64,000 nucleotides of DNA from Armatimonadota bacterium (GTDB taxonomy: Bacteria; Armatimonadota; HRBIN16), in assembly GCA_963677485.1 (NCBI GenBank), contig OY781964.1:2112001-2176000 (forward strand), in the 5' to 3' direction. The position numbers and the translations under genes are program-made. Position 1 is the stretch's first letter. Each line of letters begins with the position of its first letter. The notes below the pieces were generated by a model. It did not search any database and had not been told where the DNA came from. It saw only the letters and a list, made by a program, of their open reading frames with translations. Shown here piece after piece: positions 52,330 through 57,976 of this stretch.

Positions 52330-53265
52330 ATGCGTTGTAACCAGGCTATCATGTCGGCGTTTCTGGCTCACCCCCGCTATCGCAGCTATATCACATCACG
52401 TGACCTGCTGCATACGGCCGGTGCCGAGGCCGCACGGTTCGCGTCACCTGAAACGGCGCGGGCGATCATCGGGCTGCACACAAGCGACCTGGTGGCCAAT
52501 CAGCTTAAGTCCGGGCTGTGGAAGCAGAATTCGCGGGGCAAGAAACCGCACCAGTATGCTGTTTCGGTAGGCATACTCTGCGCCATCGAACGGGCTGGGA
52601 TGCTGACTGAGATCGGCTCCGAGATTTTACCCCTGCGTTACGATCCATACCGCCCATTTTCTGAGCTCGAAGACCGCCATGGTGTGCTGGTAAGGCGCAT
52701 GTTCGGCCGTTCTCGCCCTGAAGATTCCGCCCTTGCCCGTCGACTGAACCACCAGATCACTGACAACCAGGCATCGGATGGGAGCTGGGGCGGTACGATT
52801 GTGGAAACTGCATACGCCATCGAGCATCTACTGGAACTGGGTGACGCACCCGACTCGAGTGCTATTAAACGGGGAACAAGCTGGCTGTTGGCTCAGTATC
52901 GTGACACTGTGGAGCGGCAGGGCATTTATGTGCCGAGTCTGTTTTCGAGCGGTGATGGCGGCTCTGAACTCGCCAGTGCTCAACGAGTGATACCGGAGGC
53001 CATACCTGTGTTTGCCTGTTATGGGGTGCTGCCGTTGATCCCCACCGGTCTGGCACTGCGTGTGCTTGTGGCCACAGGATACGGCGATGATGAACGCGTG
53101 ATCGCCTCGTTTGAATCACTGCGGAAAATGGCGATACCGGTCGACGCTGCGGCAGGTTCGGGCATCAAAGGCTGGTGCTCGCATACCTGCAGGGATCTCC
53201 TGCTGGGTGCCAAGAAGGCCGATCACCAACACCGCAGGCGGTTAGCCACGCTGCCGCGGGTTTAG
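52330..53265 (+). CDS. Hypothetical protein with prenyltransferase/squalene-cyclase-like helical repeats
   Basis: Q.SDGSWGG...T...L.ELG and G..WLL.Q motifs; GGAGG RBS. The stop codon lies inside a family B repeat. Confidence 0.7.
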   Translation: MRCNQAIMSAFLAHPRYRSYITSRDLLHTAGAEAARFASPETARAIIGLHTSDLVANQLKSGLWKQNSRGKKPHQYAVSVGILCAIERAGMLTEIGSEILPLRYDPYRPFSELEDRHGVLVRRMFGRSRPEDSALARRLNHQITDNQASDGSWGGTIVETAYAIEHLLELGDAPDSSAIKRGTSWLLAQYRDTVERQGIYVPSLFSSGDGGSELASAQRVIPEAIPVFACYGVLPLIPTGLALRVLVATGYGDDERVIASFESLRKMAIPVDAAAGSGIKGWCSHTCRDLLLGAKKADHQHRRRLATLPRV

Positions 53266-53499
53266 TCACCCCACGAATGGGGTTCCCTCACCGCGCGTCT
53301 AGGCATTTGCAGCCCGCAAGCGGGCGCAGGATGCACTCCGCCCGCGAGGCGTAGGGGCGAACGGCGTTCGCCCTGGGGCCACCGAACCCGTCGACACGGG
53401 GCTGATCGCACACATCGCAGGTTACTCGTCAACGCTGCCGCGGGTTTAGGCATTTGCAGCCCGCAAGCGGGCGCAGGGTGCCTCCCGCCAGCGAGGCGT
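53244..53499. repeat. Family B repeats plus GTAGGGGCG REP; the second REP is split by the IS110 insertion
   Basis: Intact gcgaggcgtaggggcgaacggcgttcgccct at 53344-53374; the parallel copy is interrupted at 53500. Confidence 0.9.
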
Positions 53500-53514
53500 A
53501 GATACTGTGGCTTT

Positions 53515-53520
53515 TGTCAA
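53515..53520 (-). promoter_or_regulatory. -35 box (TTGACA) of the IS110 circle-junction promoter
   Basis: Joining the ends at the CT core gives TTGACA-17 nt-TACGCT. Confidence 0.8.
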
Positions 53521-53772
53521 GTCCCCAGGGGCAAATCTGGGGATTTGGACCTGAATATCAGACACTGGCTCTAGACCACGTAGAATAACGTTAATGTGAT
53601 GTTTGTGGCATATAGACCAAACCTGGATCCGCGACAGAAACAGGCTCAGATGGCATCAGTTGGTCCGTAGCACCTCACATGACGCTCGGAGTCGCGAACG
53701 GACGTGCGACATCTTCGTGGCTTCGAAAGATATCGTTATGCTTCGATGCGTGCTATCGGCAGACTGCCGCAG

Positions 53773-55065
53773 CTAGGATACTGGTGTCAGAACCCTCGGT
53801 TTGTTGCCCACCCGACTGCGCGATGGCCGGTTTCGGGATGCGGGCCGACCACCGCCGGCAGGAGTGGGCTCATTGGTGGGATTTCCATCCACGCATCCCC
53901 GTCTTGGAACGCTCACGTCCAGCCCAGGATCATTGCCTACACCGGCTATATCATGGGCCGCTCCGGCACGATCCTGGACATGTCCGTTCGCGTCGGTCAG
54001 CGGTTGCTGGTTGGCCGCATTTGAAGCTTGTTCGATGCCGAAGTTTGGATCATATGGCTGACGGCTGATTAATACCGACCACATGAGCACCAGCTGCTTG
54101 CGCATGATTGCGCGCCGGACAACTCGCTTGGACTTCGGTTTCTTATTGGGATTCTTTACCAAATTCGGATGCTGCAGTTCCTTCACGAAGTCGTGCATGC
54201 TCTGGCCAAGCTTTTTCGACTTACCGTTGACCATCTTCACCACAGTGCTCGATCCACAGTAGAGTAATGTCCGCATATATCGGTCACCCATCTTGGATAT
54301 GGAGCCGTCGTATGTCTTGCAGCTTCCTGACCGTTGCGGGCAGGGGTTCATTCCGAAATAGCGCGCGACCGCTTTCGATGTTTCAAATCGTTTAGCATCA
54401 CCGATTTTCGCAAGGAAATAGCTTGCTGTGACGTCGCCGATACCCGGAATGCTCTTCAGCAGAGCCATATCTTCGGTCATCTGCGGTGAACTCATCACAA
54501 GCTCTTTGATCTGAACATCAAGCTTTTTGATGCCCATGTCATGAAAAGCGATCATCTCGTCCAGCACTGTGCTCCGCGTAAGCCGACAGCTTTGGCGCTG
54601 GGCGATCGCCTGTCTGTGTTGCACCAGCATACGGCGGTCATTGGTGTAACCAATAAGCGCATCATAGCATGCTAGACGAGGGACATAGAGTGAGACATTG
54701 TGACTTTTCACATAGTCAGCGATTAGCACGCTGTCAGAGCAGTCCGTCTTTTGTTCCCAGCCTTTGGCTTTGCGGTGATAGAGAACCCGTTTTGGCTCCA
54801 GTTGGACAGCATCGTGCTGGTGCTCGTAGAGGTAATCAAGCAGCGGTCGGCTGTAAGGCCCGGTGGCTTCAGCCGCATACAAGGCGGGAGTTCGGGTAAG
54901 CTTCTTCACCCATGACAACAACTCCTTGTATCCGGCCTTGTTGTTCTTGAACTCCTTATGGTCTATCGGCTTGTGCGATGAACCTAATACAGACGCGTCA
55001 AACGTCAATTTCGAGATGTCGATCCCGACATAATGGATGTAGATTTTGTCTTCAACTTCGTGCAT
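53773..55065 (-). CDS. IS110-family DEDD recombinase/transposase with a C-terminal extension
   Basis: GIDISK, EATG, KTD..D (DEDD); IPGIG; G..P....SG (catalytic Ser); ATG 55065 after GGAG. Confidence 0.95.
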   Translation of the reverse strand: MHEVEDKIYIHYVGIDISKLTFDASVLGSSHKPIDHKEFKNNKAGYKELLSWVKKLTRTPALYAAEATGPYSRPLLDYLYEHQHDAVQLEPKRVLYHRKAKGWEQKTDCSDSVLIADYVKSHNVSLYVPRLACYDALIGYTNDRRMLVQHRQAIAQRQSCRLTRSTVLDEMIAFHDMGIKKLDVQIKELVMSSPQMTEDMALLKSIPGIGDVTASYFLAKIGDAKRFETSKAVARYFGMNPCPQRSGSCKTYDGSISKMGDRYMRTLLYCGSSTVVKMVNGKSKKLGQSMHDFVKELQHPNLVKNPNKKPKSKRVVRRAIMRKQLVLMWSVLISRQPYDPNFGIEQASNAANQQPLTDANGHVQDRAGAAHDIAGVGNDPGLDVSVPRRGCVDGNPTNEPTPAGGGRPASRNRPSRSRVGNKPRVLTPVS

Positions 55066-55096
55066 GTGGTAATCTCCAGTTGGTAGTGATTGATGG

Positions 55097-55297
55097 TGCA
55101 ATCAACCAAATCAGCCTAGCGAACACGGGGTTTTCTCCCAAGATACTGTTCGATATGGGTTGATTGGGAGAAGGATGCCTATCTACGTCACGGTGTTTTC
55201 CACCAGGGGCGGTTCCGGCATCCAATCCTTCTCCTTCACCCCCAGCTAAGGGGTGAGATTAGCTCCCCGACTGCTTTTGGTGTCCGGGGAGCTCACC
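55097..55297 (-). ncRNA. Bridge RNA of the IS110 element (target-binding and donor-binding loops)
   Basis: Two 5' hairpins. Stem GGAGAAGG..GGATGCC encloses ACCGCCCCT and GACGTAG; stem AATCAACC/GGTTGATT encloses ACAGTATCT and CGCTAG. The guides match the element junctions. Ends are approximate. Confidence 0.87.
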
Positions 55298-55303
55298 ATA
55301 TAT

Positions 55304-55309
55304 AGCGTA
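55304..55309 (-). promoter_or_regulatory. -10 box (TACGCT) of the IS110 circle-junction promoter
   Basis: Lies 17 nt from the right-end TTGACA once the element is circularised, just upstream of the bridge RNA. Confidence 0.75.
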
Positions 55310-55313
55310 CTAG

Positions 55314-55460
55314 GGGCGTTTCGCGAAACGCCCTTCGTGCGTCACAACCGGCCAACTGTCTCGGATGAGATCATAAAAACCCTCGCGATGGGGGCGTACC
55401 ACGGTGGATGGTGTGGCCGTTCCGCCTGCGAGAAGGGCGATTCGCGAATCGCCCCTACGT
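55314..55460. repeat. Remainder of the interrupted REP and an inverted partner REP
   Basis: gggcgtttcgcgaaacgccctt and aagggcgattcgcgaatcgcccctacgt. Confidence 0.85.
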
Positions 55461-55501
55461 ACGCGCACACCGCAGCCGGCGTTCCCCTCCGGTCGCGCGG
55501 C

Positions 55502-57976
55502 CTACCGCTTGAGCATCACGCTGGTCATGGACGCGGGCTCCATGGGAACCGTCACGTTACCGATCCGCTTCATCACCGCCTTGTCGTTGTGGTTATACAC
55601 AATCACCTCTTTGGAGGGCAGCAGCGTGCAATACACACCGTCAAAGGCGGTATCCACCTCGACGGCGTTCTTCAGATGCTTGTCCAGCGAGGACAGATGG
55701 TAGACCACGTCGCGAAGCAGCTCGTAGTATCCCAGCTTGGCTTCCCACATGCCGCAATAGTAGATGCTGTAGCCCTTGCCCAGGGGATTAGCCCAGATCG
55801 CGTTGCCCTCATCGGTCTTGGCTAGCGGAATTACTGTGCTGGCTAACCCGGTCACCGTGCGGTCGACGGTAGTGTTGTGCGCATACTGCAGCAGCGGGGA
55901 GTTGCCCACCGCCTTCCCACCCTTCACCACGGTCAGCTCCTTGGAGAATCCAAACAACTCATACCATTTTGAGAAGTCACCATCGATAGTGGCCATGGGC
56001 CCAAAGTCGCAGGAAACCACCACACCGCCCGCCTTCACCCATTCGGTCAACCGCTGCATAGTCGTGTCATCCACCAGGTTCCCTTCGAACAGCACCAGCA
56101 CGCGGTAGCCCTTCAGCGCACCATCGTTGATCAGGTTGTCATCAAGGATGTCGTAGTCGATGACGTCGCGGATGGCGGATGCACCGTCCACAAGCATGGC
56201 GGGCATAGTGGCCTCAGGATGGAGCAGGAGGTCTGTGGTCGGCCAGAACACCGCCACATCCACCACGGGGTGTTCCTGCGTGAGGTAGGCTTTGTATTTG
56301 CGGAACACATCCGGCGATCCGGTGGGGTTGGCACCCCAATCCCAGAAGCCATATGCGCCGCTGGAGATCGACTCAAAGATGCGGCCCACTTCACCATTGG
56401 CGGTGATGCTGCCTGGCGGTTCGGTCCAGAATGGCACTTTGTAGTATTTGCACGATGTGGCCAGAAGGCGCATCATCGTGGCGTAGTTCTGCGGCATTGG
56501 CAGGTATCCGCCGTGGGTTGAGCGAATATGGGTGTTATACTTTTTGGCGATCTTGGCATATTTGGTATGCTCCATGCCAAGCTTTACGTTGACATCGCCG
56601 CCGCCCACCGGGATCTCCAACAGCGACTTCGGGAAGTACTTCCGTGCCATGCTGGCCACGTCCTCGGTGAGCCGGGTCATAGATCCGTTATACCAGTTGA
56701 TGAAGTCCAGCCAGCGATGGCGTGAGGCTGGGCTATCGATCTTAGGCACCGGCAGCGGGTAACTGAGCTCCATGAAGTATTGGTACTGTGTGCCCCAGGC
56801 TCGGTTCAGGGCGTCGATGGTGGTGTATTTGGCCTGCATCTTCATTCGGAAGTCGTGTTTGGCATATTTATCGCCGCACCACCAGTCATCATGACCGGCA
56901 CCATCGACACCAAACCTCGGGATCTCGCTGGGATGCATACCTAGCGGGTAGATGGTCTCGCCGAAGTCGCCGTGGACGCCTAGATAGATCGCCTTCATCT
57001 TGTCGTTGCCAGAGCCGTAATGGGCTGCCATCGCCTTATAACCGTCGTCCATCATACCCACAAGGTAGGGGCTCCAGACCGACATCGCGCCGATCTCTCT
57101 GCCGTGCGTGATACAGGTAGAGGGCACAAACTTGCTGGTCTTCTTCTGCCACTCGTTCGCCCAGTGCAGGTGCGGGAAATACTGCCAGTCCACGCCTATC
57201 TGTCTGCATCGGTCCAGTTCCGCATCGGTCACGCTCCAGTCCCACACGCCGGGTTCCGTCTGGTTCGTGGCAAGGTGGTCGGAGTCGGTCTGGAACATGG
57301 TGAAGCCGATGCTCTTCGCCTTTCGCATCTCGCGGAAGCTCATGATGCTGGTGCCTTGCGCTATGGGCTTGCCTGTCTTGCCTGCTCTCTTTACGGGCAC
57401 TACCACGACGGCGGCCCGTTTGGTCAGTTTGGGCACATCGGCCTGTGTCACCAAGCCGTCAGGGGTGATCTCTTCATCGGTGATCAGCAGCGCGTCGACG
57501 TAAGTCAGGTAAGCCTTCTCGTTGTTCTTGCGCCGCTCATTCACCATGATCGTGATGGTGTGCTGACCTGCGGAGAGTTTCTGCAGTCCCAGACGCTGCC
57601 AGGCCATGGCATTCGACACCCCGAATATCGTGCTGTCCTCACCATCCATGTCGTCCGAGACATGGTGGTAGGCACCACCGTCCACCCGCCACCAGAAGTT
57701 GGAGGTGCCGCCTGGCATGGCGATGGCAGTCAAGAGGTGGTAACTGCCCGCCTTTTTGACACTGAACTTCCAGTTCGCGGCGTAGCCCTCTTTTCCGGGG
57801 TCGGTATTCATCCACAGCCGCAGCACCTGATCGCCACTGACAACCCCCGGGAAGCGCTCCACCCCCTCGAAGTTTCGAGAGCTGGTGTTTTCGCCTTCAA
57901 TAAAGATGCGTTCCGCATGACAAGCAAGAGGCATCGTCAGCATCAGCCCTAACGCGAGTGCCCAAATATACTTCAT
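55502..57976 (-). CDS. Secreted glycoside hydrolase (GH14/GH42-like) with an N-terminal CBM-like domain
   Basis: Signal peptide; EPG.WDWS, G.HGDFGE..YP, KY.TI.ALN.AWG, WTEP. Confidence 0.7.
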   Translation of the reverse strand: MKYIWALALGLMLTMPLACHAERIFIEGENTSSRNFEGVERFPGVVSGDQVLRLWMNTDPGKEGYAANWKFSVKKAGSYHLLTAIAMPGGTSNFWWRVDGGAYHHVSDDMDGEDSTIFGVSNAMAWQRLGLQKLSAGQHTITIMVNERRKNNEKAYLTYVDALLITDEEITPDGLVTQADVPKLTKRAAVVVVPVKRAGKTGKPIAQGTSIMSFREMRKAKSIGFTMFQTDSDHLATNQTEPGVWDWSVTDAELDRCRQIGVDWQYFPHLHWANEWQKKTSKFVPSTCITHGREIGAMSVWSPYLVGMMDDGYKAMAAHYGSGNDKMKAIYLGVHGDFGETIYPLGMHPSEIPRFGVDGAGHDDWWCGDKYAKHDFRMKMQAKYTTIDALNRAWGTQYQYFMELSYPLPVPKIDSPASRHRWLDFINWYNGSMTRLTEDVASMARKYFPKSLLEIPVGGGDVNVKLGMEHTKYAKIAKKYNTHIRSTHGGYLPMPQNYATMMRLLATSCKYYKVPFWTEPPGSITANGEVGRIFESISSGAYGFWDWGANPTGSPDVFRKYKAYLTQEHPVVDVAVFWPTTDLLLHPEATMPAMLVDGASAIRDVIDYDILDDNLINDGALKGYRVLVLFEGNLVDDTTMQRLTEWVKAGGVVVSCDFGPMATIDGDFSKWYELFGFSKELTVVKGGKAVGNSPLLQYAHNTTVDRTVTGLASTVIPLAKTDEGNAIWANPLGKGYSIYYCGMWEAKLGYYELLRDVVYHLSSLDKHLKNAVEVDTAFDGVYCTLLPSKEVIVYNHNDKAVMKRIGNVTVPMEPASMTSVMLKR

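Follow-up and report, generated by a model that had tools for sequence, protein, structure and literature searches.

The window analysed here, a stretch of 64,000 nucleotides from the genome of an Armatimonadota bacterium, carries an insertion sequence, named IS-A, which is very probably an autonomous IS110-group element of the IS621 type, with a predicted bridge RNA whose target loop fits one subtype of a REP-like hairpin family dispersed in the host genome. IS-A occupies positions 53500..55313 on the minus strand, with a copy of the CT core at both junctions, and is 1812 bp long when one CT is counted; all features described below lie on the same strand unless stated otherwise. The element belongs to an already known mechanism, that of IS621 of Escherichia coli, and does not represent a new one. 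The IS621-type identity had been proposed by a sequence-only reading of this DNA, and it is supported by the presence of both IS110 protein domains, by the IS621 and ISCro4 recombinases as the best solved relatives, and by an RNA layout of the IS621 kind.

A comparison of genome copies delimits the element. Twelve copies are present, 99-100% identical to one another, and their left ends are the same in all 12. The left junction reads AACGCCC-CT followed by AGTAC (CT at 55312..55313), and at the right junction ACAGTAT-CT (CT at 53500..53501) runs into the right target, ACGCC. The donor (ACAGTAT-CT-AGTAC) and the target (AACGCCC-CT-ACGCC) rebuilt from these junctions agree with those of the sequence-only reading. 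CT is found at both junctions in 12 of 12 copies with no further duplication, and there are no terminal inverted repeats, both of which are IS110 features; a sub-terminal inverted repeat of 2-3 bp around the donor cannot be made out clearly in IS-A. The non-coding left end (55066..55311, 246 nt) begins with the right donor arm AGTAC and is predicted to encode the bridge RNA, while the non-coding right end (53502..53772, 271 nt) contains the left donor arm ACAGTAT and two hairpins, one small and conserved (TATCTTT...AAAGAT) and one terminal. According to a passage of Durrant et al. (PMC11208160), the IS110 group is distinguished from the IS1111 group by a long, RNA-holding left end and a short right end. 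In IS-A, the left end carries the RNA, and the right end, which reaches ~540 nt when the coding tail described below is included, is not short. An internal ACCAGTATCCTAG at the stop codon was considered as an old element end and set aside, as it is not conserved in sibling elements. Five solo sites retain just 6-8 bases of the IS-A left end; they were considered as left ends of MITEs, which was also rejected, since no ACAGTATCT lies within reach downstream and the sites share no common sequence.

The recombinase gene (53773..55065, stop codon at 53773-53775) encodes 430 aa, of which residues 1 to ~345 form the core. PF01548 is matched at residues 13-158 (E 1.8e-21) and PF02371 at residues 201-285 (E 3.9e-22), both over the curated cut-offs. 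The best solved relative is the IS621 recombinase (8wt6, E 2.3e-28), with the protein ~30% identical, and the second-best is the ISCro4 recombinase (9t56, E 4.6e-26, residues 10-277). In a phmmer alignment counted by hand, residues D16, E66, D108, D111 and S246 align with D11, E60, D102, D105 and S241 of IS621, catalytic residues whose roles are treated in a section of PMC11208158, and these residues are invariant in a 10-sequence alignment. Both domains and the catalytic residues are common to IS621 and IS-A. The domain architecture (DEDD RuvC-like N-terminal and Tnp C-terminal parts), together with the catalytic residues, assigns the element to the IS110 family.

The left end is predicted to be strongly structured. 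Its single-sequence fold has an energy of -89.7 kcal/mol (z = -3.8; none of 200 shuffles was as stable) and forms two internal loops, each enclosed by a stem and with one guide pair on its opposite sides, as the sequence-only reading had supposed. The loops are preceded by two 5' hairpins (55236..55293), the first of which shows compensatory pairs. The target-binding loop (55167..55234) is built from an outer stem, GGAGAAGGA.../...UCCUUCUCC, and an inner hairpin, GGUG-GAAAA-CACC; its helices 1-3 are 100% paired in five sequences, with four pairs altered on both sides. The donor-binding loop (55099..55166) has an outer stem CAAUCAACC/GGUUGAUUG and an inner hairpin GGG-AGAAAA-CCC. The target loop stands before the donor loop, and each consists of a stem, a 5' guide, a hairpin and a 3' guide, which is the IS621-type order. 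Among five related left ends, representing about two lineages, 95.6% of cells are paired and six pairs are changed on both sides, compared with 0-2 in slid controls; this value of six was reached by 2 of 500 shuffles. An Rfam scan of positions 53000-56000 at E up to 10 gave no matching family, its sole match being a chance cobalamin one outside the element. A covariance model built from our own related left ends matched 6 of 100 distant IS110 loci (E 9e-7 to 4e-3), and all six matches are full length, directly upstream of the gene and on its strand. On two Enterobacterales loci (L089 and L087), the best matches of our model were correctly placed and not significant (E 0.58 and 1).

The four guide strings lie where the sequence-only reading had put them, namely the left target guide ACCGCCCCT (55205..55213), the right target guide GUGACGUAG (DNA GTGACGTAG, 55183..55191), the left donor guide ACAGUAUCU (DNA ACAGTATCT, 55141..55149) and the right donor guide GUUCGCUAG (DNA GTTCGCTAG, 55116..55124). 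The published IS621 rules comprise a 9-nt left guide in the top-strand sense, a 4-nt right guide and a CT core, with an 11-mer wild-type target (7 + CT + 2); the left target guide has the top-strand sequence of the left target plus the core, and the right guide is complementary to the core plus the right target. In the 12 IS-A copies, the left flank is identical to the left target guide in six (ACCGCCCCT), one base off in five (ATCGCCCCT in three copies, AACGCCCCT and CCCGCCCCT in one each) and three bases off in one (CCGCCCCCT). The window copy shows the 8/9 match claimed for it, and the perfect 9/9 site is used by six other copies. The 3' GUAG of the right target guide can pair with CT+AC, which follows in 11 of 12 copies (the remaining right flank is AT); the next base is G in only 4 of 12 flanks, the only ones in which the match extends past the 4-nt right guide.

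The donor side follows the same scheme. The left donor guide matches 9/9, as previously claimed, being identical to the terminus of the right end. The right donor guide had been matched at CTAG; that pairing stands, but it is not limited to these bases. In the IS621 scheme, a 9-nt right donor guide pairs discontiguously with seven donor bases (from a passage in PMC11208158), and in IS-A the guide pairs with 7/7 bases of CTAGTAC, provided that U and C flip out and a G-T pair is accepted at donor position 12. An AU (55181..55182) occupies the position of the target-loop handshake guide of IS621, given as A81/U82 in a passage of PMC11208158, and can pair with donor T7 and A6. A GC (55114..55115) stands at the donor-loop handshake position, where its G can pair with target C7; the published IS621 rules likewise have a handshake A for donor T7 and a handshake G for target C7. 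By our own arithmetic, a 9-mer matching at least 8/9 is expected by chance ~0.03 times in the 246-nt left end. What takes the correspondence between guides and flanks beyond chance is its replication, in 12 copies with guide-matching flanks and in sibling elements where a changed guide comes with changed flanks.

The target of the window copy is a REP-type hairpin, GGGCGTTTCGCGAAACGCCC (55314..55333), whose 3' arm forms the left target (AACGCCC, then CT). The rebuilt empty site parallels a neighbouring intact hairpin (~53343..53373), as had been noted from the sequence; it reads GGGCGAACGCCGTTCGCCC-CT-ACGCCTCGC, is unoccupied, belongs to the same superfamily (TTCGCCC-CT-AC) and matches the left target guide at 7/9. 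The IS621 target rule, here as ACCGCCC-CT-AC, fits the 12 IS-A insertions; the one at CCGCCCCCT has three mismatches to the left target guide. For ten of the 12 copies, the insertion point is the 3' end of GGGCG-N-TTC-N-CGAA-N-CGCCC; an eleventh sits in a hairpin of a different type. Among sites of the class NNCGCCCCT+AC, six perfect sites are occupied and three free, against four occupied and 76 free among one-mismatch sites and none occupied and 149 free among two-mismatch sites; perfect sites differ from the rest of the class (4 occupied, 225 free) with Fisher p = 7e-8. Occupancy thus drops stepwise with mismatches at guide positions 1-2. The genome contains 228 ...CGCCCCTAC sites, compared with ~58 expected from base composition, and GGGCG lies within 30 nt upstream in 179 of them. 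These repeats are short GC-rich palindromes present many times in the genome, as REPs are, and fall into four subtypes with consensus hairpins. These counts support the view that IS-A prefers one subtype within a REP-like hairpin family found throughout the genome, and that its target there is the 3' arm. The earlier proposal that the target loop is tuned to a REP family holds in this narrower form, with the guide fitting one subtype.

Sibling elements extend this relation beyond a single guide. IS-B has the guide CGCGCCCCT and the flanks CGCGCCCCT (9/9) and CCTGCCCCT (7/9). IS-C, in a sister genome, has the guide GTCATCCCT, with flanks matching 9/9 in six of nine copies and 8/9 in the other three, and eight of its nine copies are located at the end of a GGATGACCACAAGGGTCATCC-type hairpin. 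Two further loci, L043 and L045, pair the guide GTGGCCCCT with the flank GTTGCCCCT and the guide CGTGCCCCT with the flank CATGCCCCT, respectively. With IS-A included, there are five distinct left target guides, and the flanks follow each. In the siblings from two sister genomes, the scaffold and the donor are kept while 3-6 bases of the left target guide are changed, and each element sits in a different local hairpin repeat.

These data bear directly on the reading in which the protein or the REP structure sets the site preference and the matches between loops and flanks are incidental, for example through a captured REP-like sequence. The target motif is GC-rich and common (780 NNCGCCCCT sites in the genome), so REP-like strings inside a mobile element would be unsurprising. 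Such a capture would have to account for matches on both loops, at the IS621 positions and in the IS621 strand senses, for siblings with near-identical RNA scaffolds whose 9-mers differ and whose flanks differ with them, and for the fall in occupancy with mismatches at guide positions 1-2; we regard it as highly improbable. A role for structure in addition to the guide is a different matter. The RNA may read the 11-mer while the recombinase complex also needs or prefers a GC-rich DNA hairpin with the left target as its 3' arm, an idea that would refine the guide-based explanation, not replace it. The hairpin ends occupied by most IS-A and IS-C copies point in this direction, and a "sequence-structure dual-match", in which the target stem-loop adds specificity, is reported for ISPpu10 in the abstract of a preprint. 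However, the hairpin arm is itself the guide-matched sequence, and the effects of guide and hairpin are therefore inseparable here. One of the three free perfect sites sits in a good hairpin and is still unoccupied, and 93 GACGCCCCTAC hairpins with two guide mismatches have received no insertion, which indicates that structure alone is insufficient. This two-layer specificity is possible, and we lean somewhat against it.

It may also be asked whether the copies are relics without activity that multiplied when larger repeats were duplicated, and not by transposition. Two of the 12 copies share a 16-nt frameshifting deletion, and the window copy lies within a larger composite repeat. Against such an origin, the sequence outside the hairpin is unrelated between the 12 copies, which are 0-3 substitutions apart and have an intact gene in 10 cases, and relatives at 61-94% identity were found in other samples by a protein search. 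Spread by duplication alone is very unlikely, and the low divergence together with the intact genes suggests recent activity of IS-A. Searches for other occurrences gave no match for IS-A in E. coli genomes (blastn) and nothing in single-protein searches of genome and metagenome contigs; profile searches of contigs recovered only elements of the IS-B/IS-C type and distant IS110s.

If IS-A transposes as an IS621-type element, it would leave as a circle, and the junction of its two ends, ACAGTAT-CT-AGTAC, would be the donor site. The same joining would assemble a promoter, because an outward-facing TTGACA (-35; 53515..53520), 15 nt from the element end and conserved in 5 of 5 aligned elements, would be followed after 17 nt by the -10-like hexamer TACGCT (55304..55309). 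The siblings IS-B and IS-C have TTGACA-17-TATGCT, and in the integrated state no promoter-like site was found on the element strand. The junction promoter would drive transcription of a left-end bridge RNA of ~220 nt and then of the recombinase gene. The first internal loop of the RNA would pair with the genomic target ACCGCCC-CT-AC and the second with the donor, and the DEDD/Ser recombinase would exchange strands at the CT core. We infer circle formation, transcription, the RNA-protein complex, strand exchange and reprogrammability of IS-A. In public sequencing data (assembled contigs of 23 listed runs), the left end is covered in three runs from two studies by contigs of RNA libraries that are 90-95% alike, although such libraries may contain DNA, and none of the contigs showed the element's ends joined to each other.

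The IS-A gene differs from that of IS621 in a 3' extension of ~90 codons, within which related sequences reveal a conserved long RNA hairpin of 50 pairs and ~140 nt (53880..54021). The tail peptide has no credible Pfam match and is predicted to be disordered (mean pLDDT 59.7, from a shallow alignment). An antisense ORF (53679-54068, plus strand, 129 aa) was considered as the cause of the odd codon pattern of the tail. This ORF is without a Pfam match, shows dN/dS values between 0.19 and 1.08 and is interrupted by a stop codon in one relative; the RNA hairpin fits the data better. The extension is translated with its protein sequence not under selection, and the embedded hairpin is strand-specific, lying on the sense strand. 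Copies of the hairpin outside the element were not found in a genome search. With close to an even chance, in our estimation, the hairpin may be a third functional part of the IS-A clade, a cis-acting RNA absent from bridge systems outside it. In that role it might affect how stable the recombinase message is or how it is processed or translated, or it might be a site to which the recombinase binds.

The comparison with IS621 shows how closely the two elements correspond. They have in common a left-end bridge RNA whose target loop precedes the donor loop, the 7 + CT + 2 target rule with its CT core, the left donor arm ACAGTAT, a right donor guide that pairs discontiguously and sets G against T at donor position 12, the handshake bases A, U and G, and insertion at the 3' end of REP hairpins. 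The full 14-nt IS621 donor, ACAGTATCTTGTAT, is shared with the siblings IS-B and IS-C. The sequence-only reading had stated that the IS621 donor begins with ACAGTATCT, and this proved correct: a donor oligo printed in PMC13396178 contains ACAGTATCTTGTAT, and donor positions d6-d14 are listed as A,T,C,T,T,G,T,A,T in a passage of PMC11208158. The REP targeting of IS621, which the reading had given as established, is supported by the title of Choi et al. 2003 and by a methods passage on REPs. In contrast, IS-A differs from IS621 in its protein, which is only ~30% identical, in its target (ACCGCCCCTAC, not ATCAGGCCTAC), in its right donor arm AGTAC, in its two 5' hairpins and 271-nt right end, and in its host, Armatimonadota instead of E. 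coli. The distant lineage proposed earlier is plausible given the protein identity, and the named homologues of a neighbouring gene are mostly from Armatimonadota MAGs. The ISCro4 recombinase (PDB 9t56), with 341 residues, is without a tail, unlike that of IS-A. ISPpu10 and ISPpu9, IS110-family elements of Pseudomonas putida, insert into REP or intergenic stem-loops as IS-A does. The published core of ISPpu9 is AG, whereas that of IS-A is CT; ISPpu9 makes no hybrid promoter, and its extra RNA parts are Asr9 and the MITE-borne Ssr9. The extra RNA of IS-A is an in-frame hairpin and differs both from an antisense RNA and from a module placed separately downstream.

The embedded hairpin and the solo left-end stub sites are inexpensive starting points for work on regulation and on recombination that fails or is imprecise. 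A recombinase ~30% identical to that of IS621 and working under the same guide rules would be a reasonable candidate for screens of programmable-recombinase orthologs. Taken together with its siblings, IS-A provides a clean natural record of bridge RNA retuning.

IS-A, the IS110-group element at 53500-55313 (minus strand), carries a 430-aa recombinase ORF (53773-55065, minus) with DEDD_Tnp_IS110 and Transposase_20 domains; among proteins of known structure, it matches the IS621 recombinase (E 2.3e-28) and ISCro4 (E 4.6e-26) best. Its residues D16, E66, D108, D111, and S246 align on the catalytic residues of the IS621 recombinase as named in the structure paper (PMC11208158). In the genome, a single contig of 5.22 Mb, the element occurs 12 times at 99-100% identity, and the left ends (the non-coding bridge-RNA part) are the same in all 12; the gene is intact in ten, and the remaining two share a 16-nt deletion. 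The adjacent gene (55502-57976, minus) encodes an 824-aa family-14 glycosyl-hydrolase-like protein, and its named homologues come mostly from Armatimonadota and Planctomycetota MAGs. Judged solely from these, the host is probably a member of Armatimonadota.

The 248-nt left end has a fold z of -3.8, equaled by none of 200 shuffles. In the single-sequence fold, two 5' hairpins precede two stem-enclosed internal loops, each predicted to contain a small inner hairpin flanked by one guide per side. The guides read from the minus strand are ACCGCCCCT (left target, 55213-55205), GTGACGTAG (right target, 55191-55183), ACAGTATCT (left donor, 55149-55141), and GTTCGCTAG (right donor, 55124-55116), all exactly where the sequence-only reading had placed them. 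The window copy is joined to its flanks at ...GGGCGTTTCGCGAAACGCCC-CT/AGTACGCTATA on the left and ...TTGACAAAAGCCACAGTAT-CT/ACGCCTCGC on the right, and the hairpin at about 53343-53373, of the same target type, is empty. All 9 positions of the left donor guide are identical to the right-end terminus. For the right donor guide, a match at CTAG had been proposed; it holds, but the count was too low. In IS621, pairing by the right donor guide is discontiguous, with two flipped-out bases and a G-T pair at donor position 12 (PMC11208158), and under this scheme G-U-[U-C]-G-C-U-A-G pairs with CTAGTAC at all 7 positions. Immediately 3' of the right guides, the dinucleotides AU in the target loop and GC in the donor loop occupy the positions of the IS621 handshake guides (A81, U82, G166, and U167; PMC11208158), and read by that scheme, IS-A would keep the A:donor-T7 and G:target-C7 handshake pairs. 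The IS621 donor cited in the sequence-only reading is confirmed by a donor oligo printed in PMC13396178. In the right end (53502-53772, minus), a small hairpin combines a conserved stem (TATCTTT/AAAGAT) with a variable loop, and AACGTT motifs are also present; stem and motifs are common to elements only ~42% identical in protein.

Insertion sites follow the target guides. The left flank is ACCGCCCCT in six of the 12 copies, ATCGCCCCT in three, and AACGCCCCT (the window copy), CCCGCCCCT, and CCGCCCCCT in one each. Past the right-hand CT, 11 copies continue with AC (third base G in 4, A in 4, T in 2, C in 1) and one with AT, and for 10/12 copies the insertion point is the 3' end of a GGGCG-N-TTC-N-CGAA-N-CGCCC hairpin. 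In IS621, guides of 9 nt (left) and 4 nt (right) read the wild-type 11-mer target ATCAGGCCTAC (PMC11208160), and the IS-A target pattern is the IS621 rule as described there. When genomic sites of class NNCGCCCCT+AC, which leaves two insertions outside, were sorted by their match to guide positions 1-2, 6 sites were occupied and 3 free with a perfect match (AC), 4 occupied and 76 free with one mismatch, and 0 occupied and 149 free with two. Occupancy thus falls with mismatches (perfect versus rest, Fisher's test, p = 7e-8). Across the whole genome, the REP-like hairpin superfamily ending in CGCCCCTAC comprises 228 sites, with subtypes GGGCGCCCACAAGGGACGCCCC (93 sites), GGGCGGGGAGACCCCGCCCC (44), GGGCGATTCGCGAATCGCCCC (22), and GGGGCGACCGNCGGTCGCCCC (14); near saturation with insertions is confined to the rare ACCG variant. 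A longer composite repeat, ...CTACGCCTCGC-GGCGG...CCTGCGCCCGCTTGCGGGCTGCAAATGCCTA..., includes the hairpin entered by the window copy and occurs a second time directly downstream (53262-53500, 53400-53500).

Sibling elements carry other left target guides. IS-B, present in two copies in the same genome (~42-45% protein identity), has the guide CGCGCCCCT and the flanks CGCGCCCCT (9/9) and CCTGCCCCT (7/9). Its copies lie at 1296596-1298385 and 2667.7-2672.0 kb; one is interrupted by an IS21-type element of 2.56 kb that has 29-nt inverted ends and carries IstA-like and IstB genes. IS-C, with nine copies in a sister genome, has the guide GTCATCCCT and is flanked by GTCATCCCT in six copies, GTCGTCCCT in two, and GCCATCCCT in one; eight of the nine are located at the end of a GGATGACCACAAGGGTCATCC-type hairpin. 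Two metagenome contigs, L043 and L045, pair the guides GTGGCCCCT and CGTGCCCCT with the flanks GTTGCCCCT and CATGCCCCT, respectively. Relatives in two metatranscriptome runs, X15 and X16 (compared over 55183-55216), keep the left target guide of IS-A; two bases differ in the extended right target guide, where ACATC would replace ACGTC.

The left ends of the five elements can be aligned throughout, and 95.6% of cells in the loop region are paired, with 6 pairs changed on both sides versus 0-2 in slid controls (2/500 shuffles reach 6). Because the five represent about two lineages, this co-variation alone lends modest support to the RNA fold. Of 100 distant IS110 loci scanned with a two-loop covariance model, 6 contain a full-length match immediately 5' of the gene (E 9e-7 to 4e-3); in two Enterobacterales loci, the best match was well placed and not significant (E 0.58 and 1).

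TTGACA lies 15 nt from the IS-A right end, so joined ends would give TTGACA-17-TACGCT (TTGACA-17-TATGCT in the siblings), a putative promoter in agreement with the junction promoter described for IS621 (PMC11208160). A sequence scan of integrated IS-A found no promoter-like site on the element strand, and a terminator-like site lies just upstream. Public sequencing runs were examined as assembled contigs only: three metatranscriptome runs, drawn from two studies, contain contigs 90-95% alike with left-end coverage at 54946-55335, 55001-55334, and 55137-55336. This coverage does not prove transcription. No joined-end form was seen among these contigs.

The recombinase gene extends ~90 codons beyond the end of its 320-330-residue relatives, and the stop codon varies among elements (387, 400, or 430 codons). 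In the IS-B group, differences per site in the core rank by codon position as 3 > 1 > 2 (0.176, 0.092, and 0.058), whereas in the tail (codons 346-396) position 2 is the most variable; synonymous difference is 0.23-0.31 in the core and 0.03-0.11 in the tail. The sense-frame dN/dS rises from ~0.24 in the core to 1.0-2.5 in the tail, which is predicted to be disordered (pLDDT 22-34, from a shallow alignment). A 50-pair hairpin occupies the tail-coding stretch (53880-54021, minus) in all five elements, with 94.8% of cells paired and 7 pairs changed on both sides versus 0-1 in slid controls (0/500 shuffles reach 7). It is strand-specific (sense z = -3.6, -4.5, and -4.8; antisense z = -1.0 and -1.6). 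The diverged X16 relative gives independent support for the predicted hairpin: among the differences from IS-A listed, at least 16 when mapped by hand, 5 convert an IS-A mismatch into a pair, 2 preserve existing pairing, 7 affect unpaired columns, 1 occurs at a mismatch that persists, and 1 disrupts a pair. Judged by these substitution patterns, synonymous change is suppressed in this stretch, and its amino-acid sequence is free of purifying selection. We read the hairpin as a conserved RNA element translated through by ribosomes, and we would guess at message stability or translation control as its candidate role. A literature search found no paper on a C-terminal extension in IS110 bridge-RNA elements.

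Four solo sites in the IS-A genome (1990833(+), 2010702(+), 2851073(-), and 2382968(-)) consist of a guide-matched left target, CT, and AGTACG(C)(T), followed by unrelated DNA. A fifth, in the sister genome (~623530, minus), reads GTCATCCCT + TGTATGC before unrelated DNA. Such stubs, which retain just the first 6-8 bases of an element left end, may have been left by imprecise loss or incomplete recombination. For those in the IS-A genome, the origin could be either off-register recombination or a deletion between copies of TACG(C), a string that ACG-type right targets have in common with the left end; the sister-genome stub does not fit the simple model proposed for them. No paper on IS110 footprints or imprecise excision was found in the literature search.

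Among the relatives searched, tailed proteins (387-433 residues) occurred only in two genomes of this genus and a few short contigs, and the next relatives beyond this clade are ~30% identical. Durrant et al. (PMC11208160) predicted a bridge RNA for most catalogued IS110 elements, and REP targeting, junction promoters, handshake guides, and a structural role of target stem-loops are already described in the published accounts. Of the sequence features that define an IS621-type bridge system, IS-A displays each one that could be examined, the exception being its own long right end. The IS-A clade is a further IS621-type bridge system, not a new kind.
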